Shown here in pieces: positions 2,853 through 56,388 of a stretch of 57,659 nt of DNA. Every line of letters begins with the position of its first letter. Within the stretch, counting starts at the first letter, position 1. The translations under genes and the position numbers were made by a program. Below the pieces are notes generated by a model, which was given only the letters and a program-made list of their open reading frames with translations, searched no databases and had not been told where the DNA came from. The stretch is from an uncultured Bacilli bacterium (GTDB taxonomy: Bacteria; Bacillota_I; Bacilli_A; RFN20; CAG-449), in assembly GCA_947626895.1 (NCBI GenBank), contig CANQTY010000001.1:68477-126135 (forward strand). Direction: 5' to 3'.

Positions 2853-2854
2853 GA

Positions 2855-3337: not shown

Positions 3338-3338
3338 C

Positions 3339-3998: not shown

Positions 3999-4022
3999 TT
4001 TTATTTTCCTCCAAAATAGAAT

Positions 4023-4055
4023 GTAGGAGGGAAGGAGAGCACTCTTCCCTCCCAC
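4023..4055 (-). other. GC-rich stem-loop downstream of the solute-binding protein gene (mRNA stabiliser or partial terminator)
   Basis: Inverted repeat GGAGGGAAG...CTTCCCTCC just after the SBP stop codon. Confidence 0.55.
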
Positions 4056-4080
4056 AGATTAATAATAAATGTAAGATTAA

Positions 4081-6240: not shown

Positions 6241-6317
6241 ATAAATTAATAATCTCCTTTCAAAAACTCTTTTATATTACCAAATATTCGCTATGAATAT
6301 TTAATAAACTAATTTAA

Positions 6318-7217: not shown

Positions 7218-7234
7218 ATTAACTTATCCTCCTA

Positions 7235-9020: not shown

Positions 9021-9034
9021 TGTAAGCGTTTACA
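9021..9034. promoter_or_regulatory. cre/LacI-family operator
   Basis: TGTAAGCGTTTACA near-palindrome matching the TGWNANCGNTNWCA consensus, about 13 nt downstream of the -10. Confidence 0.75.
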
Positions 9035-9859: not shown

Positions 9860-11356
9860 TTAACGATGATAATGTTTAGTTAAATAAATTAATCTTTCTT
9901 TTAATTCATTAGATAAATCCGTCTTCTTCATGCGATAAGACCAATTATCTTTCGATACTGTCGAAGGTAAATTCATTCTTGAACTACCATCAAGAGCTAA
10001 TAAATCATTGATAGGAATAATACATGTGTTCGCTTTAGAGGCATAAGCAAGTTCAATAGTTGTTTCGACTAATTCTTTATTATTATCTCCTTTAAATGGG
10101 ACATGTAATTTTTCACATTCTTTTTTCATGGAATGAACAAAGATATTATAATTCCATTCATCTAAATCACAAATATATTGATATAAAGGCATATTATCAT
10201 GAGTCCCTGTATAAATCACAAAGTTTTTCTTGCAATTCGAAGGTTTATGTTCATTATCTTCATGCTCATCAAAAGCAAATTCTAAAATCTTCATTCCAGG
10301 ATACTTTGTCTTTTTCATTAACTGAATAACGCCTTCATCAATGACTCCTAGATCCTCAGCGACAATCTTTTTATCTAATTTATCTTTAAATAAATTAAAT
10401 TTAGGTCCATCTTCCCAATGACCATTTCTTGCATTGATATGTCCATAAGGAATAGCATAATAACGATCAAATCCACGGAAATGATCAATTCTTAAAATAT
10501 CATATAATTCAAAGGCTTTATCAATTCTTTTATTCCACCAAGAATAATGATCTTTTTTCATAAGTTCCCAATTATAAATAGGATTACCCCATAATTGTCC
10601 ATCATCACTAAAGGCATCAGGAGGACAACCTGCGACAAGTTTCGGGGCTTTATTTTCATCTAAAATAAATAATTCAGGATATTTCCAAACTTCCACGCTG
10701 TCGTGAGCGATATATAAGGGCATATCTCCCATAATCTCAATTCCAAGTTTCGAAGCATACTTATGTAACTTATTCCATTCATTTAAGAATTCAAATTGTG
10801 TCCATTGCCAGAATAGATATTCATGTTCATGTTCCTTTAATATCTTCTTTTCTAAATCTATAGAATAGCTTTGATATTCTTCTTCCCATAAAGTCCAGGG
10901 TTTATATTGATGTAATACTTTTAATGTCATAAAAAGAGCGAAATCATGATAATCACCCTTTTTTAAAAATCTTTGGAAAGCTTTATTATGAATATTAAAA
11001 TTAGCAAAAGCTACTTTTAAAAGAGGAATCTTATGTTGAAATAATAATTCATAATCCACTCGATCATCACTATAAGAAAAAGGAATATTTTGATAATCTT
11101 CTTTCTTTAAAAGATGTTTTCTATTTAAAATATCTAAATCAATTAAATAGTAATTTAAAGCTGAAGATGATGCAGATTGATAAGGTGAATCCCCATAGCT
11201 TGTAGGTACAAGAGGTAAGACCTGCCAAATCTTCATATTTGCATCATGTAAAAAATCAAGAAACTTATAACTTTCTTTCCCTAATGTTCCTACTCCATAT
11301 TTGCTTGGAAGTGAAGTAATGTGTAATAATATACCTGCTTTTCTAGATGTATTCAT
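9860..11356 (-). CDS. malQ: 4-alpha-glucanotransferase (GH77)
   Basis: GILLHITSLP, WQVLPL, GDMPLY, RIDHFRGF, AEDLG, TGTHDN, RMNLP motifs. Confidence 0.97.
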   Translation of the reverse strand: MNTSRKAGILLHITSLPSKYGVGTLGKESYKFLDFLHDANMKIWQVLPLVPTSYGDSPYQSASSSALNYYLIDLDILNRKHLLKKEDYQNIPFSYSDDRVDYELLFQHKIPLLKVAFANFNIHNKAFQRFLKKGDYHDFALFMTLKVLHQYKPWTLWEEEYQSYSIDLEKKILKEHEHEYLFWQWTQFEFLNEWNKLHKYASKLGIEIMGDMPLYIAHDSVEVWKYPELFILDENKAPKLVAGCPPDAFSDDGQLWGNPIYNWELMKKDHYSWWNKRIDKAFELYDILRIDHFRGFDRYYAIPYGHINARNGHWEDGPKFNLFKDKLDKKIVAEDLGVIDEGVIQLMKKTKYPGMKILEFAFDEHEDNEHKPSNCKKNFVIYTGTHDNMPLYQYICDLDEWNYNIFVHSMKKECEKLHVPFKGDNNKELVETTIELAYASKANTCIIPINDLLALDGSSRMNLPSTVSKDNWSYRMKKTDLSNELKERLIYLTKHYHR

Positions 11357-13492: not shown

Positions 13493-13521
13493 TTCATCTC
13501 CTTATTACCTCTACTAGATAG

Positions 13522-13554
13522 ACAAAATAGCAACCCAAAGAGTTGCTATTTTGT
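13522..13554. terminator. Likely bidirectional intrinsic terminator
   Basis: ACAAAATAGCAAC...GTTGCTATTTTGT inverted repeat between convergent genes. Confidence 0.75.
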
Positions 13555-13592
13555 TTGTTTTAATTAGTTCTATAAATTAATCGAGTCAATAT

Positions 13593-16232
13593 CTAGTCGT
13601 TTTTAAAACCAATGATTGTTTGATATTGTCTACATTGAGTTGCACCAGATAATGTAGTATTTTCTGTACCAAAGTAAGTATCTAGATATAAGGTATATCC
13701 AGCAAAATCAACATTTGGAAGAGTTCCCACGGCATTATTATGCACAATTCGATAAGTCTTATTATTCGTAGTATCTTTAATATCAAATTTAATTTGATTT
13801 TTAGACACGGAAACATTTAAAGCAGTACAAGCATCAGTATCTAAATGGAGACCATCAACTGTTTTCTTTAAAGTGATTAGCTTTTGATAATTTTCAAACA
13901 TATCTTTATTTGTAATCTTTAAGGCATAGTTGAGTTCATTAACTTGATAACTAGATTCATAAGAGTTATGATCTCCACCTTTTGTTCTTAAGAATTCTTC
14001 TCCAGCGAGCATAAAGGTTGTACCTTGAGAAGTTAAAACCACTGAATTAGCAAGCATAGCTTGTGATTTCGCAGTAAGTTCACCAACATTTGCATTCGCG
14101 GCTTTCATACGATCAAAAAGTGTGTAATTATCATGACATGTAACGTAGTTTACAGTCTTATTTGGATCTAAAATAGTTGTTCCTGTAAATCCTTTGATTC
14201 CGTTTTGAATAGAGGTTTTATCTTTAGTAGATAATTCTGTTGTAGTATTAACAAATCCTTTTTCAGAATTTCCACTCATACCACCCTTAATTAAAGCATC
14301 TCTCATTTGATCATTAAATTGACCATAACCAACATATCTAGCACCATTTTCTTGAGAAGCAGCTTGCCCACCAGGTAAAGGTGATGTGTCCCCAGCCCAA
14401 GGTTCACCATAGACACAAATGTTTGGATTAAATGTCTTTAAATTCGCGGTTAATTTATTCATTGTATCTAAATCATGAAGAGCCATTAAGTCAAATCTAA
14501 ATCCACCAAGTTTATATTCTTTAGCTAAAAATTCTGTAGAATCTTTCATGAATTTTCTAAACATTGGCATTTCAGAAGCAGTTTCATTTCCACATCCTGA
14601 CCCATTGGCAAATGAATTACCAGAATATCTAAAGTAATATCCAGGCATTAAAACATCAAAATTAGATCCTCCCGCGGCACTTACGTGATTATAGACAACG
14701 TCCATAATAATGTTAATTCCTGCTTTATTATAGGCTTGAACTAACTCTTTAAATTCTTTAATACGTGCATATCCATCATATGGATCTGTAGAATAACTAC
14801 CCTCTAAAACGTTATAATTTAATGGATTATATCCCCAGTTAAAGGTCATTTTGGTTTCATCATTTGCTTGATCAAAGATTGGCACAAGTTGAACAGCGTT
14901 AACACCTAATTCTTTAATATGATCAAATCCAGTTTTTACGGTTATATTATTATCTGTATAGGTTGTACCTTCTATATAAGCTCCTTTAAATTTTTTAGCA
15001 AATGGTTTATCTTCTTCACGAGATGACCAAGTAGAGGATGAGGTTAAATCACTTACATGAGTTTCATACACTACGAGTTTTTTTCGATCATATTGATGTG
15101 GTGATACACTTTCCCATCCAGTAGGATTCGTTTTGGAAAAATCAACAATCATACCTCTTAAACCATTGATACCCGCGGATTTAGCATATGGATCAACGAT
15201 TTCTTGATCTTTATATTGACTATTAGTGACGACATATGTGTAATATTTTCCACCTAAATCTTCATTAACTTCCGCGGAAAATACACCTTGATTACCTTTT
15301 GTCATAGTATATTCTTCATAAGTATCATCGCCTTTTGTAGCATCAACACTTTTTGGAGTACCGTTTTCATATACTCTAACTTTTATTTCACTAGAAATAG
15401 GTGACCAAACTTTAAAGGTGGTTTTTTCTTCTGTATAAGTAGCGCCTAAATCATTACCTTCATAATTAAATTGATTAAAAACTTCATCTTTATAAAGACG
15501 ATTAATATTCACTACTTTCTTTTGAGTAATTTCTTCATCTTTAAAAGTGACTTCAACAGAATAAGTTTTTGTTAAATCTGCAGGATGATCACTTGTAAAT
15601 GTATAAGTAAATGATGTTAATTCTTCATTTTGTACGTCTTCTTCATGAAGTTTTGTTTCACCTTCATAAATTACATAATGAGTAATAGCTCCACTTGTCT
15701 GGAATGTAATCGTACTTGCATCCGTGAATTGAGGTGAAAGAATATCAAAAGTACTTACTTCACTTGCATCTGTATACACTGTTGCATCTCCTGTTTTTAG
15801 GTAAATATTATAAGAGTTATTTGTATCTTTAGTAATTGTAGAAAAATCAATAAAACGATCTTGTTCTACATCTTTTGCATCCCAGCTACCCTTGGATCTA
15901 ACGATAAACCCTAATCCATTTGTTAAAATATCTTTACTCCATGTTGTAAGGGATACTTGAGCAACAGCTCCAAAATCATCCGTGGTAGTAAATGGATAAG
16001 CTGCACCCTCTTTATTCTTTTCCCAAAGCCATAATTCCCAATTAGAATAATTTGCATCATATCGGTAATAATGGATACTAACAGATTGTCCCTCTAAGGG
16101 ATGAGGCTCTGTAGATGTGCTTAATACAGTCGGGGGTACTAATGACGCATTTGAACCCGATTCAGCATTATTGCAGCCCACTAAGGCAATACTTAGTAAA
16201 GCGATAACGCCTAGAAATAGTTTTTTCTTCAT
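13593..16232 (-). CDS. pulA: Type I pullulanase lipoprotein (CBM41-like, CBM48, GH13)
   Basis: Lipobox LVGC; CBM41-like IHYYRYD..W.LWLW; DLGATY, VDPYAK, FNWGYNP, DVVYNH, GFRFDLM, YGEPW, YVTCHDN. Confidence 0.95.
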   Translation of the reverse strand: MKKKLFLGVIALLSIALVGCNNAESGSNASLVPPTVLSTSTEPHPLEGQSVSIHYYRYDANYSNWELWLWEKNKEGAAYPFTTTDDFGAVAQVSLTTWSKDILTNGLGFIVRSKGSWDAKDVEQDRFIDFSTITKDTNNSYNIYLKTGDATVYTDASEVSTFDILSPQFTDASTITFQTSGAITHYVIYEGETKLHEEDVQNEELTSFTYTFTSDHPADLTKTYSVEVTFKDEEITQKKVVNINRLYKDEVFNQFNYEGNDLGATYTEEKTTFKVWSPISSEIKVRVYENGTPKSVDATKGDDTYEEYTMTKGNQGVFSAEVNEDLGGKYYTYVVTNSQYKDQEIVDPYAKSAGINGLRGMIVDFSKTNPTGWESVSPHQYDRKKLVVYETHVSDLTSSSTWSSREEDKPFAKKFKGAYIEGTTYTDNNITVKTGFDHIKELGVNAVQLVPIFDQANDETKMTFNWGYNPLNYNVLEGSYSTDPYDGYARIKEFKELVQAYNKAGINIIMDVVYNHVSAAGGSNFDVLMPGYYFRYSGNSFANGSGCGNETASEMPMFRKFMKDSTEFLAKEYKLGGFRFDLMALHDLDTMNKLTANLKTFNPNICVYGEPWAGDTSPLPGGQAASQENGARYVGYGQFNDQMRDALIKGGMSGNSEKGFVNTTTELSTKDKTSIQNGIKGFTGTTILDPNKTVNYVTCHDNYTLFDRMKAANANVGELTAKSQAMLANSVVLTSQGTTFMLAGEEFLRTKGGDHNSYESSYQVNELNYALKITNKDMFENYQKLITLKKTVDGLHLDTDACTALNVSVSKNQIKFDIKDTTNNKTYRIVHNNAVGTLPNVDFAGYTLYLDTYFGTENTTLSGATQCRQYQTIIGFKND

Positions 16233-16294
16233 TTTTTTCTCCTTTTTCCTTTCAACTATTTAATTAAAATGAGGGATAAGATATAATAATTTCT

Positions 16295-16759
16295 ATGAAA
16301 ATACTAGTTCATCGCATTTTATTACTGACTTTATTAATCCTTGCTTTTGCTATGGATGTTACTTTTTTAGTAGTCACCCTTATTGGATTAATTCAATCAG
16401 GTAACGTAAACTTTGATCAAATCATGTATATCATTTGTTTTATTTTATCTTTATCATTCATTGGATTAGAAATATTCAATACGATTATTTCTTTTAAAAA
16501 CGGAAGTAATTTTATTAAGAATTTAGCTTATAATGATGATAATTCTTTAAATAGTCGTTTCTTATTATTAGTAAGAATTGGCTGCTTTTTAATTCTTGGA
16601 ATTTTAATTTATGCCATTATCATCTGCTTTAATAATTCTTTATTTTTAGCAAATCTAGAGCTCGCTAGTAAGGAATTAATTATTGTATTTACTTCCATTT
16701 TACTAGTCGATGCTCTAGCAATTGCTACTTATCCATTTTTTGATAAGTTAGATAAATAA
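16295..16759 (+). CDS. Hypothetical 4-TM membrane protein
   Basis: 154-aa hydrophobic ORF filling the intergenic space; TATAAT 7 nt before the ATG. Confidence 0.7.
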   Translation: MKILVHRILLLTLLILAFAMDVTFLVVTLIGLIQSGNVNFDQIMYIICFILSLSFIGLEIFNTIISFKNGSNFIKNLAYNDDNSLNSRFLLLVRIGCFLILGILIYAIIICFNNSLFLANLELASKELIIVFTSILLVDALAIATYPFFDKLDK

Positions 16760-16763
16760 TTTT

Positions 16764-18443
16764 TTACTTTAATAATACGGTAGATAAGCGTCCAATTTTC
16801 AACGTTCCATTTTCTAATACTGGAGTTAATTTTGAACAAGATACTTCATCTACAATCGTATTTCCTAACTCTGAAACATTAATTTCTACATTGGAAGTTT
16901 CAAAGTTATGAATAACTATCACATAATCATCACCAAGAGATACCTTATACGCTAAGACATGTTTATAGTTTTGATTAATTTTACTTGTTAGATTCGTAAA
17001 GATACTCTGCTTCATAAATGGATATTTATTACGAATATTGATGACTTTTTTATAATGATTCCATAAAGAATATCCATTTTCTTTAGCTTCATATGCCCCA
17101 ACAGTAACTTGATCATTATTAGCTAAATCTTGACGATTCTTTTCAGGAAAAGCACATTCTCCTTCTTTATCTTTTGACCAAACCATTGGTAATCTTCTTC
17201 TTACATCGCTTTGATCATCAGGTGATGTATTCCTTTTCCCTTTAAGTAAAATTTCTTCACCATAATACATATATGGAGTTCCAGGAAGTAAGAAAGTAAG
17301 AGATGCTGCCATTTTAGCATAAATTTCTGAAAATGAATTTGAGGAACGATCCATATCGTGATTGGATAAGAAATAAGATGAATATCCATCTGGATTGTTC
17401 TCTTTTAAAATTCTTTCTTGTTCTTCAATTAAATCACCAAATTTATTAGAATCAACTATTCCTTTTACTTGACTTAAAATAGTATCATCACCACGTCCAT
17501 CTAAAGAAGCATTGAATTTAAAGAAGGAGTCAAAGGATGATTTATAATAATTATTTATAACATTTATTCTATCCCAACATTCTCCAACAAAATAAATCGA
17601 TGGATCAACTTTATTGATTTCATCTTTTAAATAAGAAAGAAATTCTGCATTATAAACTGTATTTTCATAATCATAATATTTTACAGCATCAAATCGAAAT
17701 CCATCAACACCCTGTTCTACCCAAAATTTTAAGATATTGACCATTTCTTCCCGAACTTCTTCATTTTCTGTATTAAAATCAGGCATAGATGAATCAAATC
17801 TAGATTCATAATAAACGCTTCCTTTTGAGCTATATCCAGTTGGCTTACTTGTCGACCAAACATACCAATCTTTTTTAGAACCCTCAGCTTCATTATTATT
17901 GCAATAATCTTCATAGGACTTTAAAAACCATGGATGTTGAGAACTAGAATGATTAAATACGATATCAATCATGATATCGATATTCACTTTTTGAGCTTCT
18001 TCAGTGAGTTCTTTAAAATCATCTAAAGTACCATAATCAGGATGTACATTATAATAATCAGTAACATCATAACCATGATATGAAGGAGATGGCATAATGG
18101 GCATCAACCAAATAGTTTTAATACCTAATTCTTTTAAATATGGAAGATTTTTAGTAACTCCTTTAAAATCACCAATTCCATTTCCATCACTATCATAAAA
18201 ACTTCTGACAAAGATTTCATAACTTGCTGAACCATTTTCATTTGTCACTTCAGCGTCAAATTCATAATTGTTGCCTTCATAGGCATTTAATTCTACTTCT
18301 TTCACTTCGCTTTTCTCACTATTGCCATTACAATCCTCGAACATTTCATCACAAATACTTGTGCTTTGAGAATTATTATTACATGCCACGAGGGCTATAA
18401 GTGAAAAAAGAGATGTGAATAATATCATTGATCTCTTTTTCAT
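16764..18443 (-). CDS. Alpha-amylase family GH13 lipoprotein
   Basis: Lipobox LVAC; YEIFVRSFYDSDGNGIGD, HGYDVTDY, DIVFNH, GFRFDAVK, VGECW, FLSNHD. Confidence 0.95.
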   Translation of the reverse strand: MKKRSMILFTSLFSLIALVACNNNSQSTSICDEMFEDCNGNSEKSEVKEVELNAYEGNNYEFDAEVTNENGSASYEIFVRSFYDSDGNGIGDFKGVTKNLPYLKELGIKTIWLMPIMPSPSYHGYDVTDYYNVHPDYGTLDDFKELTEEAQKVNIDIMIDIVFNHSSSQHPWFLKSYEDYCNNNEAEGSKKDWYVWSTSKPTGYSSKGSVYYESRFDSSMPDFNTENEEVREEMVNILKFWVEQGVDGFRFDAVKYYDYENTVYNAEFLSYLKDEINKVDPSIYFVGECWDRINVINNYYKSSFDSFFKFNASLDGRGDDTILSQVKGIVDSNKFGDLIEEQERILKENNPDGYSSYFLSNHDMDRSSNSFSEIYAKMAASLTFLLPGTPYMYYGEEILLKGKRNTSPDDQSDVRRRLPMVWSKDKEGECAFPEKNRQDLANNDQVTVGAYEAKENGYSLWNHYKKVINIRNKYPFMKQSIFTNLTSKINQNYKHVLAYKVSLGDDYVIVIHNFETSNVEINVSELGNTIVDEVSCSKLTPVLENGTLKIGRLSTVLLK

Positions 18444-18449
18444 CTCTCT

Positions 18450-19346
18450 TTATCCTTTTACTGCGCCACCTGTAACACCAGATACATAGTACTTCTGTAA
18501 GGCGAAGAACAAGATTGTAATCGGTAGTGCTACCACGACCGCACCTGCAGCGAATTGTGTGTAATAAGATGTGGCGATATCTTGACCTGTTGTGAATTGG
18601 TATAAGCCAATTGCAACTGTCCAGTTCGATGTATTTTGTAAGCCAATGATATATGAGGATGTAACATAGTCACCCCATGGTCCCATAAAGCTTGTTAATA
18701 CAGTATAGACAATAATGGGTTTTGCAAGAGGTAAGATAATTTGCCAGAAGATTTGGCTCTTTGACGCTCCATCAATCATCGCTGCTTCATCGATATTTTT
18801 AGAAATTGTATCGAAGAATCCTTTTGCAATGTAGTAACCTCCACCTGCTCCTGCAGAATAGATAATTACGAGGGAGAAATAATTTCCTTGGAGATGGAAG
18901 ATATCTCTCATAACCCAATACATGATAATCATTCCTAAGAATCCAGGGAACATACCAATGACAAGATTCACTTTCATGAAAATCGTACGAGCTTTGAATC
19001 TAAATCTAGATAAAGCATAGGCTGTTCCTAGTACGAATAAGGTCGAAATTAGACAAGATAATACTGCAACAATTAACGTATTGCAGAACCATCCAAAGAA
19101 ATATCCGTCTAATGAATGGTTAGAGGCACGAGGATTTGTAACCCCTGTAAAATTACTAAATAAATATAGATAATTATCGAAGGTAAACGTTTCAGGAATT
19201 AATTGTGAACGAACACTAATTCCACCTCCTCCAAACGATTGGAGAACAATCCATACAATTGGTAATACCCAAATGATGGACATGATTCCTAAGATTAAAT
19301 AAATGATTGTGTTCGAAATAATTCGACTTGCTTTTAAACTTTTCAT
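18450..19346 (-). CDS. malG: Maltodextrin ABC permease (MalG/MalD-like)
   Basis: AYALSRFRFK, EAA loop IDEAAMIDGA, C-terminal GVTGGAVKG. Confidence 0.9.
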   Translation of the reverse strand: MKSLKASRIISNTIIYLILGIMSIIWVLPIVWIVLQSFGGGGISVRSQLIPETFTFDNYLYLFSNFTGVTNPRASNHSLDGYFFGWFCNTLIVAVLSCLISTLFVLGTAYALSRFRFKARTIFMKVNLVIGMFPGFLGMIIMYWVMRDIFHLQGNYFSLVIIYSAGAGGGYYIAKGFFDTISKNIDEAAMIDGASKSQIFWQIILPLAKPIIVYTVLTSFMGPWGDYVTSSYIIGLQNTSNWTVAIGLYQFTTGQDIATSYYTQFAAGAVVVALPITILFFALQKYYVSGVTGGAVKG

Positions 19347-19347
19347 A

Positions 19348-22203
19348 TTACTGGAATTGATCCTCCTCTTTTATAGAATTACTCTTGTTATACATAACAA
19401 TGGAGATAAAGGAACAAATAATGAATATTACAATACCGATTGTACTAGCAATACCATATTGAGGATTATTCGTGGATGTAACAATCTTATATAAGAATGT
19501 AATTAATAAGTCTGTTTGTCCTAAGCCTAATAATCCTGATCCAACGATTGATGGACCCCCACCTGTAAGGAAGAAGATAACATTGAAGTTATTAATATTA
19601 CCAATAAATTGAGTAATGAGATAAGGTCCAGTGACGAATAAGATGTAAGGCATCGTAATCTTCGCAAATTGTGTGACTGTCCCAGCACCATCAACTTTTG
19701 CAGATTCATATAAATCTTTTGGAATATTTAATAAGATACCTGTTGTGGATAGAATGGTATATGGAATACCAACCCATACGTTAACTAGAATAATGATGAT
19801 TTTTGCCATCATAACTCCATTTGCAGATCCATCGGAACCAAAGCCTAATCGGTAGCCAAATGTATCATTGAATAATCTTCCTAATGCACCCGTATCTTTT
19901 AATAAGGTAGCAATTGATAGTAAGGAAATGAATTGAGGAATTGCGACTGTCATCATGAAGATTGTTCTCCATAATTTCTTAAGTCTAATACCTTCTTTGT
20001 TAATTAATAAGGCAACAACAATACCTAAGATATAGTTTGAGAATGTGGCAACAATTGCCCAAATCATCGTCCATTCAACAGTTCTTAATAAAGCATTTGG
20101 TAAGACAACATAGACCGAATCCGCGGGAGGATTAAATAATGTAGCAAAGTTATCAAATCCTATCCATGTAAATAATTGAGTTGGTGGAATATGTCCTGTT
20201 GAGTAGTTTGTAAATGCCACGAGAATTGAGAACAATAATGGCATGATAGACATAAATAAGATACCAATAACAGGAAGTGATAAGATTGTAATATGGAACT
20301 TATCATTAAATAAGCTCTTCACTGTCTCTTTAAAGGAAACTGGTCTTCCATTATATTTATCTGGATGATCTTTAACATATTGTTCTTTTTCTTTATCAAG
20401 TGTATTTAACTCTTTTTCAACTTCTTCACTTGTCATAAAACGCTGTGCTTTATTTTCAGTGATTAATAATTTCTTAGCGAATGCTTGAGCATCTTTATAA
20501 TTTAATTTGTATTCAACAATCATCATATCGATGACTTCTTGCATCGCAAATTCTTCACTTGTATAATTCGTTTTTAAGTATTTCTTATCACGATTATAAG
20601 CATTTTTAGATTCTTTAATTTCTTCTTTTTCAAGAAGTTTAATATTCTTATCACTTGGTAAGTCATTTAAACTTCTCATAATTGCAGTAGTTCCATCAAC
20701 TAATTTAGCTTTAGCTTCCATTAAAAGTTGATTTTTATTTGGATCATTCGCGGCTTTAATCGCTTTAACTTCTTCTTTATAAGCAACTTTTACTTTTGCT
20801 AATTCATCATTTAAAGCCTTTTTCTTTTCGCGGATAGCATCAAAGCTAGTTCGTGTATTGGTGATTTTTTGATTCATCTCTTCACCCAAAGAAACAATCT
20901 TTTGAACGTTTTCTTCGTTCTTTTCTTGATACTTATCTAATTTAGATTCGTATAAATCTTTAAATTCTTGATAATGTGAATAGAAGAGAATCTTTGCATC
21001 TAAACTAGCAACGTATTTATAGTAATCATTAAATTTACCATACTTATCATTATTTCTAGTTTCTTGAATTTCTACGAATGTTAAGTAACGTTTATGGATT
21101 TCCTCTAAAACGTGATTTTGTTTTTTAATTTTGTTATCCCATTTTGCAAGTTTACCCATGTTCTTGTTTTCATACTTTTCAATAGAAATATCTAATTTTT
21201 CAAAGTATTCAGGATCATCACCTGTGTAAGCTTTACGTTTTTCATCACATTCTGCAATGTGGGCTTTTAGACCATCTTGGCAAATTTGATTGACTTTTTC
21301 TCTTTTTGTTTCTAATTTCGCGATAACATTTTCTTGACGTTTAACGGTTTTAAAATATTTATAAGAATGTCTGCAGTTATTGATTAATAAATATCTTGTA
21401 TAATCTGCATCCTTTTTATTTTCTATTTTGCTAACGTATTCATCAATTTCGGCTTTTTTAGAATTGATAAAGTCTTTACAAGAAATACCTTCTTCGAATG
21501 CTTTTTTTGCTTCGGCATCAAATTTTTTAGAGATTTCAATATTATCTTTATAAAGTTGTTCGAAATGGATGAACTCTTTAATACGATAATTATTGTAACC
21601 ACTATTGATGCTACGATTCCAAATATAAAGGAAGAAGAAGATGGATAAGATCCATAATAATCCATAAATAAGGATCATAATGGAGTTATCACCATTAATC
21701 CATTCACAGAATTGTTCATCTTCACAGAATGGATCTGGTCCAGGTGCCACTAAACCAAGTTTTCCAAATGTTAACATGTAAAGGGCATTTGCACCAAATA
21801 AAGCAAAGAAAACGATGTATAAAACTTCAAATAATGCAAAAAGTACACCATTTACATATTGTTTATTTGAGAATGATGAGAATCCAAATAAGAAGAACGA
21901 TAATCTTCCTGATCTATCATTATATTTAAATTGATGTGCTTTTCGCTTAAAAAAGTCTTTAATACCGATTACACCATGGAAAACACCTAATCCGAATAAT
22001 TTGAAAAAGTGACCAATGGACGTAAACATTGATACTACTAAATCAAAAAGCCAATAAATCGCTTTCCAAATCGCGGATAAAACTACAGTGAAAAAATAAA
22101 CAACTGGATTTATAAGTTTTACCTTTCTAGCAAATACGCTATTTACCTGAGGGTTTTCTTTTTCATTAGAGTTTTTTATTTCTTCGTTTGTATTATTACT
22201 CAT
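19348..22203 (-). CDS. malF: Maltodextrin ABC permease (MalF/MalC-like) with about 430-aa charged insertion
   Basis: C-terminal MalC domain (VAFTNY, WIGFDNF, DLYESAKVDGA, NINNFNVIFFLTGGGP, TDLLIT); central K/E-rich helical region. Confidence 0.88.
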   Translation of the reverse strand: MSNNTNEEIKNSNEKENPQVNSVFARKVKLINPVVYFFTVVLSAIWKAIYWLFDLVVSMFTSIGHFFKLFGLGVFHGVIGIKDFFKRKAHQFKYNDRSGRLSFFLFGFSSFSNKQYVNGVLFALFEVLYIVFFALFGANALYMLTFGKLGLVAPGPDPFCEDEQFCEWINGDNSIMILIYGLLWILSIFFFLYIWNRSINSGYNNYRIKEFIHFEQLYKDNIEISKKFDAEAKKAFEEGISCKDFINSKKAEIDEYVSKIENKKDADYTRYLLINNCRHSYKYFKTVKRQENVIAKLETKREKVNQICQDGLKAHIAECDEKRKAYTGDDPEYFEKLDISIEKYENKNMGKLAKWDNKIKKQNHVLEEIHKRYLTFVEIQETRNNDKYGKFNDYYKYVASLDAKILFYSHYQEFKDLYESKLDKYQEKNEENVQKIVSLGEEMNQKITNTRTSFDAIREKKKALNDELAKVKVAYKEEVKAIKAANDPNKNQLLMEAKAKLVDGTTAIMRSLNDLPSDKNIKLLEKEEIKESKNAYNRDKKYLKTNYTSEEFAMQEVIDMMIVEYKLNYKDAQAFAKKLLITENKAQRFMTSEEVEKELNTLDKEKEQYVKDHPDKYNGRPVSFKETVKSLFNDKFHITILSLPVIGILFMSIMPLLFSILVAFTNYSTGHIPPTQLFTWIGFDNFATLFNPPADSVYVVLPNALLRTVEWTMIWAIVATFSNYILGIVVALLINKEGIRLKKLWRTIFMMTVAIPQFISLLSIATLLKDTGALGRLFNDTFGYRLGFGSDGSANGVMMAKIIIILVNVWVGIPYTILSTTGILLNIPKDLYESAKVDGAGTVTQFAKITMPYILFVTGPYLITQFIGNINNFNVIFFLTGGGPSIVGSGLLGLGQTDLLITFLYKIVTSTNNPQYGIASTIGIVIFIICSFISIVMYNKSNSIKEEDQFQ

Positions 22204-22225
22204 ATCACCACTCCCCTTAAAAAAA

Positions 22226-22258
22226 TCATATAGGAGGAGAATTACTCCTCCTATATGA
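22226..22258 (-). terminator. Intra-operon hairpin/terminator after the binding-protein gene
   Basis: Perfect 14-bp stem TCATATAGGAGGAG/CTCCTCCTATATGA with 5-nt loop, followed by a T run on the minus strand. Confidence 0.75.
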
Positions 22259-22280
22259 GATAAAAATTAAATTAAGTTAA

Positions 22281-23561
22281 CTATTGTGCAACTCTTAAAG
22301 TATCCATTTGTTCCTTTAAGAATTGTGTCCATGTTTTGCCAGCTAAATTGCTATCAAGATAAGCTTGACCAATGGCTTGACCAATATCCCAATATCTATC
22401 TTGTGCGGTCTTAGCTTGCACGCATGCATAAGCATTTTGTTCAACTAATGCTGCACCACCAATTGTAACGTTAGCTGTATATCTTGAATCTTTTGCAGCT
22501 TCATTATTACATGGAAGTGCTTGACGTTTTTCAAAACGAACGAGTTGAGCTTCTTTTGAAGTTAAGAGTTCTGCAAGAGCAGCAGCTGTTTTTTGTTCTG
22601 CGACAGGACGTGTTTTATTTAAGCAATAAACTTTAGATCCTGTAAATGAAGCCATTTGATAGCTCTTTCCTTCAATCTTATATGTTGGAAGTTTTGTGGC
22701 TGCTAAATTATTACCTACGATTGGTTTTAATTCGTTTTCCATCCAAGTACCAGATACAGCAGCGATTAATGAACCATCAGAAAATCCAGCAGAAATGTTT
22801 TCGTTAGATCCAGTTACTAATGTTCCATCAGCATAATATGGAGTTAATAAACCAGCAATGTATTCAGAAACTTTAACACCTGTTTCATTATCCCAGTTTG
22901 TAACATATTTAACTTTACCTTCAGCATCTTTTTCCCAATATAAGGAATCAACACCACAGGCATCTGGGGACATAATGAAGGAGTTTGCATACCATCCATT
23001 AGCGACATCCATTAAAACCTTTTTATTATTGGCTTTTGCTAAGGCTAACAAATCCTCTAAAGAACCAACTTTATCTTGGATTCCAGAGACACCCTTGTTA
23101 TACCATAAGAAGTATCCGTTATCAGAAGTTACTGGATAACCATATAATTTACCATCAAGTGTTGCACCAGCAACTGCGACTGCAGAGTTTTCTGCGACGA
23201 CTTTATCTTTTCTTGAACCTTTAAGTTCAGAAACGATATCTTTAGATTGTAAATTGAAGATATGGTCATCAGCACATAAGAATAATGCTGGCGCGCCATC
23301 AACGGTTGGGTCTTTTGCTAAGGTTGTACCTGCATCAGATTCTGCAACGGCTGTAAATGTGTAATTGAATTTTGCACTAGCTTCTGTTTGTTTGCTATTG
23401 TAGTCATTAACGACTGCTTCGATAACTTGTTGTTCTGCGGCGGTTGCCCAAATGTCAATATGGACATAATCACCAGCAGGAGCTGCTTCTTGTTGTTGGC
23501 AAGCAACTAAGCCTAATGTGGTCATTAAGGCTGTTCCTAAAATTAATAAACCTTTTTTCAT
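22281..23561 (-). CDS. malE: Maltose/maltodextrin-binding lipoprotein
   Basis: Lipobox LVAC; LYGYP, FLWYNK, SGTW SBP motifs; directly upstream of the MalF/MalG-like permeases. Confidence 0.85.
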   Translation of the reverse strand: MKKGLLILGTALMTTLGLVACQQQEAAPAGDYVHIDIWATAAEQQVIEAVVNDYNSKQTEASAKFNYTFTAVAESDAGTTLAKDPTVDGAPALFLCADDHIFNLQSKDIVSELKGSRKDKVVAENSAVAVAGATLDGKLYGYPVTSDNGYFLWYNKGVSGIQDKVGSLEDLLALAKANNKKVLMDVANGWYANSFIMSPDACGVDSLYWEKDAEGKVKYVTNWDNETGVKVSEYIAGLLTPYYADGTLVTGSNENISAGFSDGSLIAAVSGTWMENELKPIVGNNLAATKLPTYKIEGKSYQMASFTGSKVYCLNKTRPVAEQKTAAALAELLTSKEAQLVRFEKRQALPCNNEAAKDSRYTANVTIGGAALVEQNAYACVQAKTAQDRYWDIGQAIGQAYLDSNLAGKTWTQFLKEQMDTLRVAQ

Positions 23562-23584
23562 ATTCTTTTTTCTCCTTATTTAGT

Positions 23585-24142
23585 TTATTGAGCTGCTGTA
23601 GCTGCTGTGAAATCAATCACAAATTTGAATGAACGTCCAGCGTCATCAGTTTTGAAATTGTATGGATCATATGAGATGTGATATGTACCAGCTTTATTTA
23701 CTGTAACATTAGATCTATTGGAACTACCTTGATTCCAACTTTCTTTTGTTTTGTCTGGAAATAAGGCTTTAAATGCAGCATTACATTCATCAAAGTCTAC
23801 ATCTTCCATACCATATTGTACATTCCAAGAGTTTGAGGCGATAAATTTGAATTCTGCGTTTGCGCCATTAGCCACCATATCTGCTGTAACTACTGCGTCA
23901 AAGGTATATTCATTACTTGTAACTCTTGTAAATCTACATGAAGGATTTGCTTCCTTAATGGTTTTAATGTTATCCCAACCATGCCAATGAGAACCAATAA
24001 TATACATTTCTTCATTTGCTTCAAATTTATTGGTATTTTGTTCAAAGCTATCTCTTTCGTCAGGTTGTTGATTACATGCTACTAATCCAAGTCCACCAAG
24101 CACTGCTAGTGAACAAAGTAACACTTTAGTTTTATTAAACAT
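23585..24142 (-). CDS. Lipoprotein with a single SusE/SusF-like carbohydrate-binding domain
   Basis: Lipobox LVAC; MYIIGS..GWD, EFKF...W..YG and AGTYHISYD pattern. Confidence 0.65.
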   Translation of the reverse strand: MFNKTKVLLCSLAVLGGLGLVACNQQPDERDSFEQNTNKFEANEEMYIIGSHWHGWDNIKTIKEANPSCRFTRVTSNEYTFDAVVTADMVANGANAEFKFIASNSWNVQYGMEDVDFDECNAAFKALFPDKTKESWNQGSSNRSNVTVNKAGTYHISYDPYNFKTDDAGRSFKFVIDFTAATAAQ

Positions 24143-24247
24143 TCTTATCTCCTTTCTTTTTCATCGGAGCAGTTTGCTACAAATCTGCTCGTTTAAAAAT
24201 GTTTATATATATTAATAGAGATTATTTTCTCCTTATTAATACCGAAG

Positions 24248-25354
24248 TTAAATTGCCATTTCTGTATCAACATCAAAGAAATGGACTTTATCTACTTTGA
24301 AATCAATTCTTAATTTATCGTGAATTGAAATCACTTTATTTGCAGGGAATTTAGCAACAAGATCAACGCCACCAAAATCACTATGAATGTAATATTCATT
24401 TCCTAATAATTCAGCGACATTGACTTCGATTTCATAACCGCCTTCTTCAACAGGAATAATGTTTTCTGGACGGATACCTAAGATGACTTTACTTGGAATC
24501 TTCTTTCCTTTATAAACTTCTTTTGGAATCTTAATTTCTTTTCCATCTTTACATTTTGCAACACCTGTTTTTTCATCAAAGTCGACAAGTAAGAAATTCA
24601 TAGCAGGGGATCCAATGAATCCTGCGACGAATAAATTGCTTGGATTATTATAAATTTCAATTGGTGTGCCAATTTGTTGAATTCTACCTAATTTCATGAC
24701 GACGATTCTAGAAGCCATAGTCATTGCTTCAGTTTGGTCGTGTGTAACATAAATGGTTGTGGCTCCTAAGGCCTCATGTAATTTGATGATTTCACTTCTC
24801 ATTTGTACTCTTAATTTTGCATCAAGGTTAGATAATGGTTCATCCATTAAGAAGACTTTAGCATTACGAACAACTGCTCTACCTAAAGCAACACGTTGTC
24901 TTTGACCACCTGATAAAGCTTTTGGTTTACGATCAAGATATTCTGTAATTTGTAAAATTCGTGCAGCTTCATGTACTCTTTTATCAATTTCATATTTTGG
25001 CATTCTTCTAATTTTTAAACCAAATGCCATATTGTCATATACGGACATATGTGGATATAAGGCGTAAGATTGGAACACCATTGCGATATCTCTATCTTTA
25101 GGTGTCTTATCATTACAAAGTTCATTATCGATGTAAAGTTCACCTTTGGTAATATCCTCTAGACCTGCTATCATTCTTAAGGTTGTAGATTTACCACATC
25201 CTGATGGACCAACGAAAACAATGAATTCATGTTTTTTAATTTCAAGATTGAAATCAAACACGGCTTGTACATTGTTATCATAGATTTTGTCTATGTGTCT
25301 TAATGATACAAACGATTCTTCATTCTTTTTTTCATCAACCACATTATTTGCCAT
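24248..25354 (-). CDS. msmX: Multiple-sugar ABC ATPase (MsmX/MalK)
   Basis: [47 protein letters not shown]. Confidence 0.95.
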
Positions 25355-25408
25355 ATAAATTTAATCCTCCGTTAAACTGCATTTTGTAATTTGTATAAAT
25401 ACAAAATA

Positions 25409-25422
25409 TGCAAGCGGTTTCA
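25409..25422. promoter_or_regulatory. cre/LacI-family operator
   Basis: TGAAACCGCTTGCA on the minus strand, about 14 nt downstream of the -10. Confidence 0.7.
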
Positions 25423-25435
25423 ATACCACGTATAA

Positions 25436-25465
25436 ATAATACCCCCCCCCGTACCTTTTTGTCAA
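25436..25465 (-). promoter_or_regulatory. Sigma-A promoter of the maltodextrin operon with G9 tract in the spacer
   Basis: TTGACA (25465-25460), spacer AAAAGGTACGGGGGGGGG (18 nt), TATTAT (25441-25436). Confidence 0.75.
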
Positions 25466-25932
25466 GAAAAACCTACTTTTCGCACGGAAATAAAGGCATT
25501 TGTTAAAAAAATTACCTCTTATTTTTATACCCCTGAAAGCGGCTTTCATTTTTGTATTAAATTTGTGCACAAGCACAAATCTTATTTTTTATCAATTTTT
25601 TTAATCGTATTTTTTTACCCATATAAACAAATAGGTTGATTTTTATATAAAAAAACCATAAAAATAGCTAAAAATTTTTTTGACTAAAAAAATAAGAAGC
25701 ATTGAAAATTAGCCCATTAATAAGGCATTTTTTAAGTAAAAAAATGGCTTTATTTTTCCTATTAAAATTTCACTATTTTTCTGATGATTTTTTTAGTTAA
25801 AATTTTTTTTGAATTTTTTTATAATTTAACCCCATATGCGTCTATAAAATCATCATTTTTTATCTAAAATGAATTTTCTATTATCATGATTAATTCTTTA
25901 AATTGAATTTTTTATTTCTTATAATTAAAGAC

Positions 25933-26853
25933 ATGAAAGAGATGAAAATGAATCAATTAATTGTATCAAAAGATGGTCCTATTAAGTCCATTCAAGAAGC
26001 CATTAACTCTATAGTATATGGAAATCATGTTTCTATATATATAAAGGAAGGAATCTATGAAGAAAAAATCATCATCGATAAACCCAATATCGATTTAATT
26101 GGTGAAGGAATTAATAAAACCATTATTAAATATAATGATTATTCTAAAAAGATTCATCCTGATGGAAGAGATTATAATACCTTTAGAACCCCAACAGCGC
26201 TTGTTCTAGGGGATTATTGTAAAATCAAAGATTTAGCAATTTATAATTCTGCTGATCCTAAAGGAGGACAAGCTATTGCTTTAGCTATCTATGGGAATCA
26301 TTTTTCTTTAGATAGTGCAAGAATATCTTCCTATAATGATACTTTATTTTTAGGACCCCTTCCTGATGATTTAAAAGAACGCTATACAAAATTTTTAACT
26401 CCAAGAGAATTATTTATTGAAGGAAATCTATATTCTCATTTCAAAAATGCCCTTATTGAAGGTTCTATTGATTTCATCTTTGGCGCAGGCTCTGCTTTAT
26501 TTGATCGTTGTAATATCGTCTCATTAAAAGAAGGATATGTTGCCGCGCCAGGACATAGCCTATTTCAAAAAGATGGATTCATCTTTAATGAATGTCATTT
26601 TATTAATCAAACAAACTTAATGAATTCTACCTATCTAGCTCGACCTTGGAGACCCTATGGTAAATGTGTCTTCTTAAAATGTAGTTATGATAATCATATT
26701 AAAAAAGAAGGAATTGCCTTATGGCATAATTTAACTCCAGAAGAATTCTCTAGATTTTATGAATACCCCTATAATCCTTCAAGAGTAAAATATTTTCTTC
26801 CCTTGAATGATTATGAATATGAAAAATATATCACTCGTTTTATGAATTTTTAA
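25933..26853 (+). CDS. Pectin methylesterase (CE8), no signal peptide
   Basis: SIQEAI, IKEGIYEE, GQAIAL, NDTLF, EGSIDFIFG, YLARPW. Start is ATG 25933 or 25948. Confidence 0.9.
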   Translation: MKEMKMNQLIVSKDGPIKSIQEAINSIVYGNHVSIYIKEGIYEEKIIIDKPNIDLIGEGINKTIIKYNDYSKKIHPDGRDYNTFRTPTALVLGDYCKIKDLAIYNSADPKGGQAIALAIYGNHFSLDSARISSYNDTLFLGPLPDDLKERYTKFLTPRELFIEGNLYSHFKNALIEGSIDFIFGAGSALFDRCNIVSLKEGYVAAPGHSLFQKDGFIFNECHFINQTNLMNSTYLARPWRPYGKCVFLKCSYDNHIKKEGIALWHNLTPEEFSRFYEYPYNPSRVKYFLPLNDYEYEKYITRFMNF

Positions 26854-28775: not shown

Positions 28776-28988
28776 ATGAACATAATCGGACAATTTATTA
28801 AAGAAAACAGAAAAAAATTAAATCTTACACAAAAAGAGTTTGCCTTACGTTCAGGATTAGGAATTCATTTTGTACGTGATTTAGAACAAGGAAAAGAAAC
28901 TCTTCGTCTTGATAAGGTAAATCAAGCTCTCGCAATGTTTGGAATGACTGCTGTTCCAGGAAGGATGAAACATGGCAATGAAGAATGA
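28776..28988 (+). CDS. hipB: HipB-like Xre HTH antitoxin/regulator
   Basis: IGQFIKENRKKLNLTQKEFALRSGLGIHFVRDLEQGKETLRLDKV; first gene of a three-gene hip operon. Confidence 0.9.
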   Translation: MNIIGQFIKENRKKLNLTQKEFALRSGLGIHFVRDLEQGKETLRLDKVNQALAMFGMTAVPGRMKHGNEE

Positions 28989-29313
28989 CACGTATCGAGA
29001 AGCATATGTTTATATAAGAAATGAGTTTTGCGGTATTTTAAAGGAAACAGATGAAGGCTATTCTTTTTGTTATGACAAAGAATATTTAAAGAGAGAAAAT
29101 TCTCTTCCTATAAGCCTTACTCTTCCCTTACAAAAAGATGAATATAAATCTACAACTCTTTTTCCCTTTTTTGATGGACTAATCCCAGAGGGATGGATAT
29201 TGGATGTAGTCACTCATAATTGGAAAATTAAATATAAAGATCGATTTGGATTACTACTTGTTTCTTGTAGTGATCCTATCGGAGTTGTTTCACTAAAGGG
29301 AGAGAATAAATGA
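28972..29313 (+). CDS. hipS: HipA N-terminal-domain protein (HipS-like)
   Basis: YSFCY, PISLTLP, LFPFFDGLIPEGW, DPIGVV motifs. Confidence 0.88.
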   Translation: MAMKNDTYREAYVYIRNEFCGILKETDEGYSFCYDKEYLKRENSLPISLTLPLQKDEYKSTTLFPFFDGLIPEGWILDVVTHNWKIKYKDRFGLLLVSCSDPIGVVSLKGENK

Positions 29314-30272
29314 TGAAATGTCTTTGTTGTAATCAAATAATAGATGCAAATGCTAGTGAATATGAACGTCAAAATCATTGGCATTTAAAATGTATCCATA
29401 ATTTTTTTAATACAAATTTTTTACCTGAATTATACATTAATGAAACGACTTTAGAAGAAATCGCAAAAAGTTATATCAATCAAGGCTATACAATCCCTGG
29501 TGTGCAAAAGAAGTTGTCCTTACACTTAACCGAAGAAAAAAAGCCTAGACTAACTTTAGTAGATTACCCGACTGGATATATTTTAAAGCCCCAAACAGAA
29601 AAATATGCTTCTCTTCCTGAAGCAGAATTTCTCGTAATGAGTATAGCAAAAGAAATCGGAATTAAAGTCGTCCCTTTTGGGTTAATTAAGACAAAAGATG
29701 GTTTAGCATATATTACAAGAAGAATTGATCGTATAAAAAATAAAAATGGATATGATTTTTTAGCCATGGAAGATTTTTGTCAATTAGATTTACGCTTAAC
29801 CGAAGATAAATATAAAGGATCTTATGAACGATGTGCAAAAATCATCAAAAAATATTCTTCCTATATTCAATTTGATTTATCTGAATTGTTTTTAAGACTT
29901 TTATTTTGTTTTGTAATTGGTAATTCTGATATGCATTTAAAAAATTTCTCTTTAATTGAAATAAGTCCAAAATCCTTTACGTTTTCTTTATCTAGTGCTT
30001 ACGATTTACTTCCTGTTAATGCGATATTAAAAGAAGATCCTGATGAATTTGCTCTTGCCTTAAATGGTAAAAAATCTCATCTAACAAAAAATGATTTTAT
30101 CACCTATGGAGAACATATTGGTTTAAATTTAAAAACGATTTCAAATATGATTCAATTAATTATTAGTAAGAAAGATTTATTTCTTATGATGTGTGAAGAA
30201 TCTTATTTACCTTCATCTTTAAAAGAAGATTTAAAAGAACTCATCATTAATAGAATCCATAGACTACTTTAA
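29310..30272 (+). CDS. hipT: HipA-family Ser/Thr kinase toxin (HipT-like)
   Basis: TIPGVQKKL Gly-rich loop, YILKP, MEDFCQL, GNSDMHLKNFS, AYDL. Confidence 0.9.
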   Translation: MMKCLCCNQIIDANASEYERQNHWHLKCIHNFFNTNFLPELYINETTLEEIAKSYINQGYTIPGVQKKLSLHLTEEKKPRLTLVDYPTGYILKPQTEKYASLPEAEFLVMSIAKEIGIKVVPFGLIKTKDGLAYITRRIDRIKNKNGYDFLAMEDFCQLDLRLTEDKYKGSYERCAKIIKKYSSYIQFDLSELFLRLLFCFVIGNSDMHLKNFSLIEISPKSFTFSLSSAYDLLPVNAILKEDPDEFALALNGKKSHLTKNDFITYGEHIGLNLKTISNMIQLIISKKDLFLMMCEESYLPSSLKEDLKELIINRIHRLL

Positions 30273-56250: not shown

Positions 56251-56388
56251 GTAGCTCACCTCAAAAAATCGTCTAAATATATTTTAATCAATATCCATCT
56301 TTATTTATATATTCTTATTTATCTTTTTGCATTTTAAGTTGTAATCTACTCCACTTTAGTCATGGATTGCGACTATATTGATGTTCTT

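Follow-up and report, generated by a model that had tools for sequence, protein, structure and literature searches.

Gene content and promoter of the operon

The window, that is, the whole 57,659-nt stretch of DNA analysed here, contains on its minus strand a starch/maltodextrin operon that begins with malK, a gene for a MalK/MsmX-type ABC ATPase. The operon and its surroundings comprise the following features:

24248..25354, minus strand: MalK/MsmX-type ABC ATPase, first gene of the operon (ABC_tran, 1e-31; OB_MalK, 1.9e-10)
23585..24142, minus strand: 185-aa lipoprotein with no Pfam match; its N-terminus ends in the lipobox LGLVAC
22281..23561, minus strand: sugar-binding lipoprotein (SBP_bac_8, 2.2e-22), lipobox LGLVAC
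22226..22258, minus strand: stem-loop with a 14-bp stem and a T-run after it, between the genes for the binding protein and the MalF-like permease
19348..22203, minus strand: MalF-like permease of 951 aa whose N-terminus carries a long extension (BPD_transp_1 at residues 725-938 only)
18450..19346, minus strand: MalG-like permease (BPD_transp_1, 4.5e-17)
16764..18443, minus strand: lipoprotein alpha-amylase of family GH13 (Alpha-amylase, 1.1e-83), lipobox IALVAC
16295..16759, plus strand: ORF between the amylase and pullulanase genes
13593..16232, minus strand: lipoprotein pullulanase (PUD, CBM_48 and Alpha-amylase domains), lipobox IALVGC
9860..11356: GH77 4-alpha-glucanotransferase, beyond the pullulanase gene

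At the N-terminus of four of these products (the 185-aa and binding proteins, the amylase and the pullulanase) is a lipoprotein signal peptide with the ending LVAC or LVGC. A preliminary description of this DNA had predicted starch utilisation with surface lipoproteins, and the four signal peptides in the cluster make this a fair label. The same description had placed the whole operon under the control of one promoter, which fits the first three genes but not so clearly the rest, because a hairpin follows the binding-protein gene and an ORF on the opposite strand precedes the pullulanase gene. The stem-loop at 22226-22258 is likely a partial terminator or an mRNA stabiliser; given its 14-bp stem and T-run, the first three genes would be covered, while the remainder may receive less transcription. 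The pullulanase gene may be a separate transcription unit with its own promoter. A search for MalK homologues returned 80 distant homologues with 55-70% identity, the best being a partial match (70%) in an Acholeplasmataceae MAG, and yielded no close relatives or orthologous promoters.

The region upstream of malK contains the following elements:

25460..25465, minus strand: -35 hexamer TTGACA (sequence and consensus scan)
25442..25450, minus strand: G9 tract (C9 on the plus strand), forming the 3' half of the spacer and abutting the -10 hexamer (sequence)
25436..25441, minus strand: -10 hexamer TATTAT, giving an 18-nt spacer (sequence and consensus scan)
25366..25370, minus strand: ribosome-binding site GGAGG, 11 nt before the malK ATG (sequence)
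25409..25422, no strand assigned: cre-like palindromic operator TGAAACCGCTTGCA, differing from the cre consensus at one position on either strand
25533..25547, no strand assigned: perfect 7-1-7 palindrome TGAAAGCCGCTTTCA, around 70 bp upstream of the -35 hexamer (sequence)
25561..25580, no strand assigned: inverted repeat ATTTGTGC-N4-GCACAAAT, found as a stem-loop

The poly-G promoter lies about 80 nt upstream of the malK-like ATPase gene, and its spacer, read from the sequence, consists of AAAAGGTAC followed by G9, that is, 18 nt between TTGACA and TATTAT. This arrangement had been reported in the preliminary description and was exact when we re-read the coordinates from the sequence; likewise, the location of the tract in a promoter spacer ahead of a starch/maltodextrin uptake operon is borne out by the agreement among sequence, consensus scan and Pfam annotation. 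In the consensus scan, the promoter matched 11 of 12 consensus positions with a spacer of 18, ranking first in 24900-26100 and also top in 13000-25500. It was the sole promoter-like site on the minus strand of the 548-bp intergenic region, which is bounded by the malK-like ATG at 25354 and a divergent pectinesterase gene at 25903. Nevertheless, promoter-like sites were no commoner than chance in 24900-26100 (8 found versus 8.5 expected), and since such matches do not exceed chance in AT-rich DNA, the case depends on the tract. Indirectly, the lack of another strong minus-strand site in the intergenic region and the cre-like site shortly after the -10 hexamer support our inference that TTGACA/TATTAT is the promoter actually used for malK, with a putative transcription start near 25429. 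An Rfam scan of 25200-26000 returned nothing near the gathering score, indicating that there is no known riboswitch or leader at malK.

Putative operators around the promoter

The cre-like site at 25409-25422 was scored against TGWAANCGNTNWCA, which we take to be the cre consensus, and occupies approximately positions +8 to +21 relative to the predicted start; from its sequence, it is likely a repression site of the CcpA/LacI type. The window contained 13 matches to the cre consensus versus 4.3 expected, and a count of 13 was reached in 2 of 100 shuffles. One perfect cre, at 9021-9034, precedes the other sugar ABC operon of the window. Together, the cre-like site at malK and this perfect cre suggest that carbon-catabolite or repressor control is probably layered on top of stochastic control.

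Two further repeats lie upstream of the -35 hexamer. The palindrome at 25533-25547 has a sequence compatible with a second operator, and the inverted repeat at 25561-25580 is possibly the site of a regulator; TGTGC..GCACA palindromes resembling the latter occur upstream of the poly-G promoter on contig C3 of this genome and of malK in two relatives.

Poly-G tracts are over-represented across the genome

The genome comprises 1,515,409 bp in 102 contigs, with 30.5% GC. Across the whole of it we found 17 G/C runs of at least 9 nt, versus 0.11 expected from base composition, and 19 runs of at least 8 nt, versus 0.75 expected. One locus had been counted twice, where the end of contig C8 meets C97, so that the 19 tracts correspond to 18 distinct loci. 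The distribution of run lengths was bimodal, with 16 runs of 6, two of 7, two of 8, 11 of 9 and six of 10.

At ten of the 18 loci an ORF is preceded by TTGAC[AT]-N8/9-G8-10-TAnnnT, and G8, G9 and G10 all occur among them. They are the locus in the window and those on contigs C3, C8/C97, C30, C34 (two), C38, C42 (two) and C101, and their tracts lie roughly 30-170 nt ahead of the first listed ORF start. The spacer was 17 nt long in one of them, 18 nt in four (the window included) and 19 nt in five. Four promoters of this genome share one TTGACA-N9 core and carry G9, G9, G10 and G10, respectively.

The remaining eight tracts (C2, C11, C20, C27, C28, C39, C55 and C102) are intragenic, mostly in large genes for surface proteins. 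Six of them are situated within about 130 codons of the ORF start; in C28 the tract is close to the 3' end of the ORF, and C27 has an ORF of only 91 aa. We changed the tract length of these eight loci in silico. Those of C2, C20, C39 and C102 were in frame, whereas three of the eight (C11, C55 and C28) appeared to be out of frame, leaving the product truncated or with its N-terminus cut off; C27 fell clearly into neither group. As assembled, C11 (G10) would yield 641 aa from an internal start, as compared with 686 aa at G9; C55, 866 aa at G10 and 891 aa at G9; and C28, 180 aa at G8 and 329 aa at G9. The genes on C11 and C39 are paralogues, of which that on C39, with G9, is open and that on C11, with G10, is not.

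Promoter-type and intragenic tracts share their immediate context: at all 18 loci the run is preceded by C and the G residues are on the sense strand, and at 15 of the 18 it is followed by T. Genes at tracts other than that of the window encode two BspA-type LRR proteins; Ig-like, MBG and InlB-B-repeat proteins of 600-990 aa; a Bac_transf sugar transferase; CotH and GIY-YIG proteins; and a pyruvyl-transferase-like ORF, with several large ORFs belonging to no family. This gene set is the usual cargo of contingency loci. With over-represented G/C tracts in an AT-rich genome, associated with surface and glycan genes and in some cases with OFF frames, the genome shows features of a phasome of the Campylobacter type. 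The approximately 18 loci, 10 of them in promoters and eight within genes, look like poly-G contingency loci that act as random on/off or dimmer switches.

The promoter cassette recurs in related genomes

We searched for the cassette in three sets of genomes. TTGAC-N10-G8 was present in 14 of the 41 genomes of the relatives set, this genome included, and the fuller TTGACA-N5-9-G8+-N0-8-TANNNT in 13 of the 31 family genomes and in 29 of a class-wide sample of 401. Three unrelated genomes of the class contained 12-16 copies of the cassette each. The reversed control pattern had no match in any of the 41, 31 and 401 genomes searched.

From 30 loci of the relatives search we extracted 28 sites (L043 and L046 gave no row). 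Their -35/-10 spacing, read by eye, was 17 in one site, 18 in eight, 19 in 12, 20 in three and 21 in two, with two sites unassigned. A good -10 hexamer, most often TATAAT, follows the tract directly or after one base. The preliminary description took G8 as optimal and G10 as poor, as the rules for sigma-70/sigma-A would have it, but with a modal spacing of 18-19, not 17, in these 28 sites, another length may be the ON state. A G·C run may have a slightly different helical twist and so could shift the optimal spacing, and the G9 observed at malK is probably an expressing or an intermediate state. Among the relatives, a shorter N is paired with a longer G tract (N5 with G16, N6 with G11, N7 with G12), as expected if total spacing matters.

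Tract length varied among the sites of the relatives, from 8 to 16 G. Loci L042 (genome G018) and L052 (genome G011), which are 97% identical over 900 bp, have G11 and G10, respectively, and the promoter pair G018:C70 and G011:C23 has G9 and G10. Three promoters of G024, whose spacers differ at one or two bases only, carry G8, G10 and G11, and two of G014, with identical cores, carry G10 and G11. Homologous promoters thus show the variable tract length between constant flanks that is expected of phase-variable promoters with a homopolymer in the spacer.

The operon itself is conserved in genome G016, where it is syntenic with the same gene order. MalK is 91% identical there, the 185-aa lipoprotein 46%, the binding protein 67%, the permeases 70% and 85%, and the amylase 71%. 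However, its upstream region is unrelated and contains an ordinary promoter with no G run, indicating that the switch is not a conserved feature of the operon; judging from the sequences compared, the poly-G promoter is derived in this lineage. A close orthologue of MalK was absent among the matches in the three genomes of the same genus, the best of which reached 66%.

Tract length at the malK locus

Nine runs contain this stretch or part of it, all of them rabbit-gut or gut metagenomes from three studies, represented by contigs and including no RNA; four of the nine were compared. The consensus was G9 in the three sequences that span the tract (the window, X3 and X5), at the contig level, where minor lengths are invisible. 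The X3 contig covers 25208-25839 with no differences, and the X5 contig covers 25055-26000, differing at 25133 and 25709 and missing one base at 25686. In X1, at around 6-7x depth, the contigs are interrupted between 25439, where one stops, and 25446, where the following one starts; this break may reflect either mixed lengths or poor sequencing of the homopolymer. Coverage in X6 is limited to the conserved portion of malK, and neither its gaps nor the X1 break speaks for or against variation in length. Two exact-pattern scans of metagenome contigs for further copies of the locus, with any tract length, found none.

How much weight an unchanged consensus deserves can be judged from systems in which switching is established. 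Within an isolate of Treponema pallidum, according to PMC7864442, tprL has from 7 to 11 G, with most molecules at 9 G. Likewise, PMC3639595 describes stocks of repair-proficient Neisseria meningitidis as nearly all 11G until selection is applied, and G runs of at least 9 as slippage hotspots even in repair-proficient Neisseria. In the light of the T. pallidum and N. meningitidis cases, an unchanged consensus is weak evidence, and heterogeneity within the population is still compatible with it.

The organism is walled and encodes mismatch repair

We had expected at first that mismatch repair would be absent, but this was ruled out by the identification of MutS and MutL on contig C51, in open frames of 879 and 604 aa that scored 151.9 bits for MutS_I and 116.8 bits for DNA_mis_repair, respectively. 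Slippage should therefore be slower than in repair-deficient Campylobacter and Helicobacter. A wall-less mollicute, suspected from the low GC content, the lipoproteins and the giant permease, was also discarded: the window contains genes for EzrA and a Germane-domain protein, the genome encodes penicillin-binding proteins, and the standard genetic code fits. The organism is a Bacillota bacterium of the rabbit gut that has a cell wall, a small genome and proficient mismatch repair.

A proposed phase-variable switch and its alternatives

We consider that the tract upstream of malK is best explained, with a probability of roughly 60%, as a slipped-strand, phase-variable switch in a promoter spacer, of the porA or Treponema tpr type, acting on a carbohydrate operon. 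The G9 would be what varies in a promoter of the sigma-A type, TTGACA-N9-G(n)-TATTAT, driving at least the malK, lipoprotein and binding-protein genes and probably also those for the permeases and the amylase. Slipped-strand mispairing during replication would add or remove one G, and G8, G9 and G10 would set spacings of 17, 18 and 19 nt and hence a graded promoter strength. The population would then always be mixed in its levels of transporter and surface lipoproteins, with the cre-like operator just downstream of the -10 hexamer adding ordinary catabolite or repressor control. The tract at malK would change at high frequency, and its changes in length would alter expression. The phase-variable switch put forward in the preliminary description thus gains from something that this description had missed, the family of poly-G-spacer promoters in this genome and its relatives, in which the number of G differs between near-identical members, although the locus itself had G9 in all three consensus sequences.

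The main competitor is a G tract that serves as a fixed structural element of the promoter, a rigid stretch of G/C adjoining the -10 hexamer that sets spacing or promoter strength, or is bound by a factor, and is effectively stable over ecological time, so that the length differences between species or paralogues would be ordinary slow evolution. The constant G9 in three consensus sequences from different samples would suit such an element, as would the presence of MutS and MutL, the uniform design (C 5' of the run at 18 of 18 loci, an abutting -10 hexamer, G always on the sense strand) and the concentration of related promoters at 18-19 nt, as if this were a working length. However, the same tracts occur within genes, where no promoter role is possible and three of the eight are out of frame; near-identical promoters differ in the number of G alone; the lengths among relatives extend from 8 to 16; and, according to PMC3639595, runs of at least 9 G are hotspots of slippage even in repair-proficient Neisseria. 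We therefore regard a fixed element as unlikely, while granting it appreciable weight.

Much less credit is due to an action at the level of translation, for which the tract would lie in a 71-codon upstream ORF (25576-25361, minus strand) whose frameshifts alter a leader peptide or translational coupling. The tract does fall within this ORF, whose end lies 6 nt from the malK ATG, but it starts with GTG and, as read by eye, has no Shine-Dalgarno sequence ahead of it; both consensus hexamers and the cre-like site also fall inside it, and in relatives that share the operon the DNA upstream is unrelated. Its product is of low complexity, basic and aromatic, as from AT-rich non-coding DNA, and we rejected it as a gene; a translational switch is very improbable. 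An artefact of sequencing or assembly, such as the poly-G of two-colour chemistry or a chimeric join, would agree with the breaks in this assembly at one such tract (the C8 end and C97) and in the X1 contigs at the malK tract. It is nonetheless scarcely credible, because the C9 with identical flanks is found in the X3 and X5 contigs, from two other samples and two studies, the tract is embedded away from the ends of reads and contigs, and the same architecture appears in dozens of independent genomes with none for the reversed control.

If the tracts switch, MAGs of commensals would conceal heritable phenotypic differences in the use of nutrients, single cells would be able to do less than consensus assemblies and gene-presence tables suggest, and tract lengths in deep metagenomes would be a readable record of selection in the gut by diet, phage and IgA. 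More broadly, and as a tentative proposal that we hold at somewhat below even odds, small-genome gut Bacilli, this rabbit-gut lineage among them, would have repeatedly recruited a standardised, portable module with G on the sense strand, TTGACA-N5-9-Gn-TATAAT, despite intact mismatch repair, randomising carbohydrate foraging in addition to surface adhesins and glycans; here, it would have replaced the ordinary promoter of a starch-uptake operon. On this reading, sub-populations would vary in starch use and in how far phages or host IgA can reach the four surface lipoproteins, and contingency loci, so far a matter of a few pathogens, would become relevant to commensals that have not been cultured and to the basic uptake of nutrients.

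Comparison with known systems

A close parallel is porA of N. meningitidis, which likewise has a G tract between the -35 and -10 hexamers, in a mismatch-repair-proficient host, as part of a genome-wide phasome. In the same species, opc and fetA have poly-C promoters, and fetA is a nutrient receptor. Unlike the organism studied here, N. meningitidis is a Gram-negative pathogen and commensal of the nasopharynx, and the targets of its switches are outer-membrane proteins. Here, in contrast, the host is an uncultured gut member of the Bacillota with a small genome, the target is an operon for carbohydrate ABC uptake and amylase, and the tract is part of a standardised AC-Gn-TAnnnT cassette, in which it always abuts the -10 hexamer. 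As to the effect of length, expression from the porA promoter is high with 11G, 2-fold lower with 10G and 13-fold lower with 9G, as given in PMC3639595.

Treponema pallidum resembles our case in that many promoters of a small genome, among them those of tprE/G/J, tprL and TP0126, contain poly-G tracts. PMC7864442 reports that the poly-G length in these promoters gates transcription, with 8 G or fewer being permissive for tprE/G/J. The host differs, however, being a spirochaete pathogen in which putative outer-membrane proteins are targeted.

Among low-GC relatives of the Bacillota, Mycoplasma hyorhinis vlp genes have a poly-A tract in the promoter spacer, and the gene for P78, an ABC-transporter lipoprotein of M. 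fermentans, is subject to poly-A frameshifting. These systems share with ours lipoprotein genes, including that of an ABC binding protein, and slippage at homopolymers. They differ in using poly-A tracts and in belonging to wall-less pathogens, whereas this organism has penicillin-binding proteins and the standard code.

Campylobacter and Helicobacter are not known to have mismatch repair of the MutS/MutL type. Their phasomes are similar to that described here in residing in an AT-rich genome of around 1.5 Mb with many G/C tracts in surface genes, but the presence of MutS and MutL makes this genome, in that respect, like Neisseria and unlike Campylobacter. In addition, their tracts are mostly intragenic, whereas here 10 of 18 are in promoter spacers of one fixed layout. 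PMC6321876 and PMC8355987 describe genomes of about 30% GC and about 1.5 Mb with some 20-30 G/C tracts of 8-11 nt, located mostly in genes for surface structures and glycosylation, both within and between genes.

A Gram-positive gut commensal with a switching G tract is already available in Bifidobacterium breve, whose pilus is turned ON and OFF by replication slippage at the tract, as stated in PMC9187656. The B. breve switch is, however, an intragenic frameshift in a high-GC actinobacterium and does not involve a promoter spacer.

A literature search of incomplete coverage retrieved no paper on poly-G promoter switches in organisms of this kind or on such a switch for a maltodextrin ABC operon; the sole paper to match every term of one query dealt with Treponema outer-membrane proteins. 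To our knowledge, homopolymer phase variation has been studied almost wholly through the surface antigens of pathogens such as Neisseria, Haemophilus, Campylobacter, Helicobacter, Treponema and Mycoplasma. The mechanism is thus established; what is new is the host, an uncultured commensal lineage of Gram-positive bacteria, the starch/maltodextrin target, and the uniformity and spread of the cassette, with the same device occurring in one standard form at around 10 promoters of a repair-proficient gut member of the Bacillota and in many of its relatives.

Sequence regularity around the G runs

The 18 distinct loci with G runs of at least 8 in the genome of the window's organism, 10 in promoter spacers and 8 inside ORFs, share flanks and orientation. 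The base 5' of the run is C in every one of them, including that at window positions 25442-25451, most commonly in the context AC or AAC, and a T follows directly 3' in 15 of the 18; likewise, it is the sense strand of the served gene that carries the G's (18/18). This regularity of flank and strand could reflect the origin of the tracts, a strand-specific mutation bias or selection.

Contig ends occur within approximately 1.5 kb of many tracts of this genome (contigs C11, C34, C38, C42, C55, C101 and C102), and tract-bearing loci seem to be breakpoints of the assembly, either because gene families are repeated there or because tract lengths are mixed. Two further contigs, C8 (at its end, 40538-40546) and C97 (2686-2694), end in, or overlap at, one shared poly-G promoter.

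Palindromes upstream of poly-G promoters and malK

The window's poly-G promoter is preceded by two palindromes:

25533-25547, palindrome TGAAAGCCGCTTTCA
25561-25580, palindrome ATTTGTGC-N4-GCACAAAT

These palindromes, together with those on contig C3 and ahead of malK in the relatives G021 and G037, may be candidate sites of one common regulator. In both relatives, the 3' end of the upstream reading frame looks, from its sequence, like a putative PucR-like helix-turn-helix motif. The palindromes on C3 (upstream of 61738, ahead of a second poly-G promoter) and in G021 and G037 (malK loci L004 and L009) are of a similar TGTGC..GCACA form.

Other genes of the window

Within the starch operon region we noted two ORFs:

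19348-22203, minus strand, MalF-like permease of 951 aa, its transporter domain limited to the last ~215 residues
16295-16759, plus strand, ORF of 154 aa without a family, flanked by the genes for amylase and pullulanase, both on the other strand

The N-terminal ~720 residues of the permease were without a Pfam match; its orthologue in the related genome G016 is also full length, with 70% identity across residues 19-951. The 154-aa ORF may be spurious, or may divide the cluster into two transcription units.

Other carbohydrate genes were as follows:

1-636, at the window's start, rhamnogalacturonase/pectate-lyase-like ORF, after the second sugar ABC-transporter cluster
1779-9011, minus strand, second sugar ABC-transporter cluster
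9021-9034, perfect cre palindrome TGTAAGCGTTTACA, directly upstream of that cluster
25903-26853, pectinesterase gene

Judged by gene content, the second transporter cluster, the rhamnogalacturonase/pectate-lyase-like ORF and the pectinesterase gene suggest a lifestyle based on plant polysaccharides.

Three more ORFs deserve mention:

28972-29313, plus strand, 113-aa ORF with the Couple_hipA domain (N-terminal part)
29310-30272, plus strand, 320-aa ORF with the HipA_C kinase domain
55228-56259, minus strand, BspA-type leucine-rich-repeat ORF (LRR_5, 2.2e-33)

The first two overlap and constitute a HipA-like toxin split between its domains. The leucine-rich-repeat ORF shares its protein family with two genes of contig C34 that follow poly-G promoters; no G run of at least 7 occurs near it within the window.

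Poly-G promoters elsewhere in the class

In the class-level sample, three genomes from families other than that of the window's organism (G434, G254 and G054) contain 12-16 copies each of promoters with a poly-G spacer. The promoter core is near-identical within each genome and differs from one genome to another, that of G434 being, for example, TTGACAAGT-G10-TGTATGCT or TTGACAAGT-G10-TGTATGTT. This repetition suggests that these three genomes hold large paralogous families under similar, putative poly-G control.
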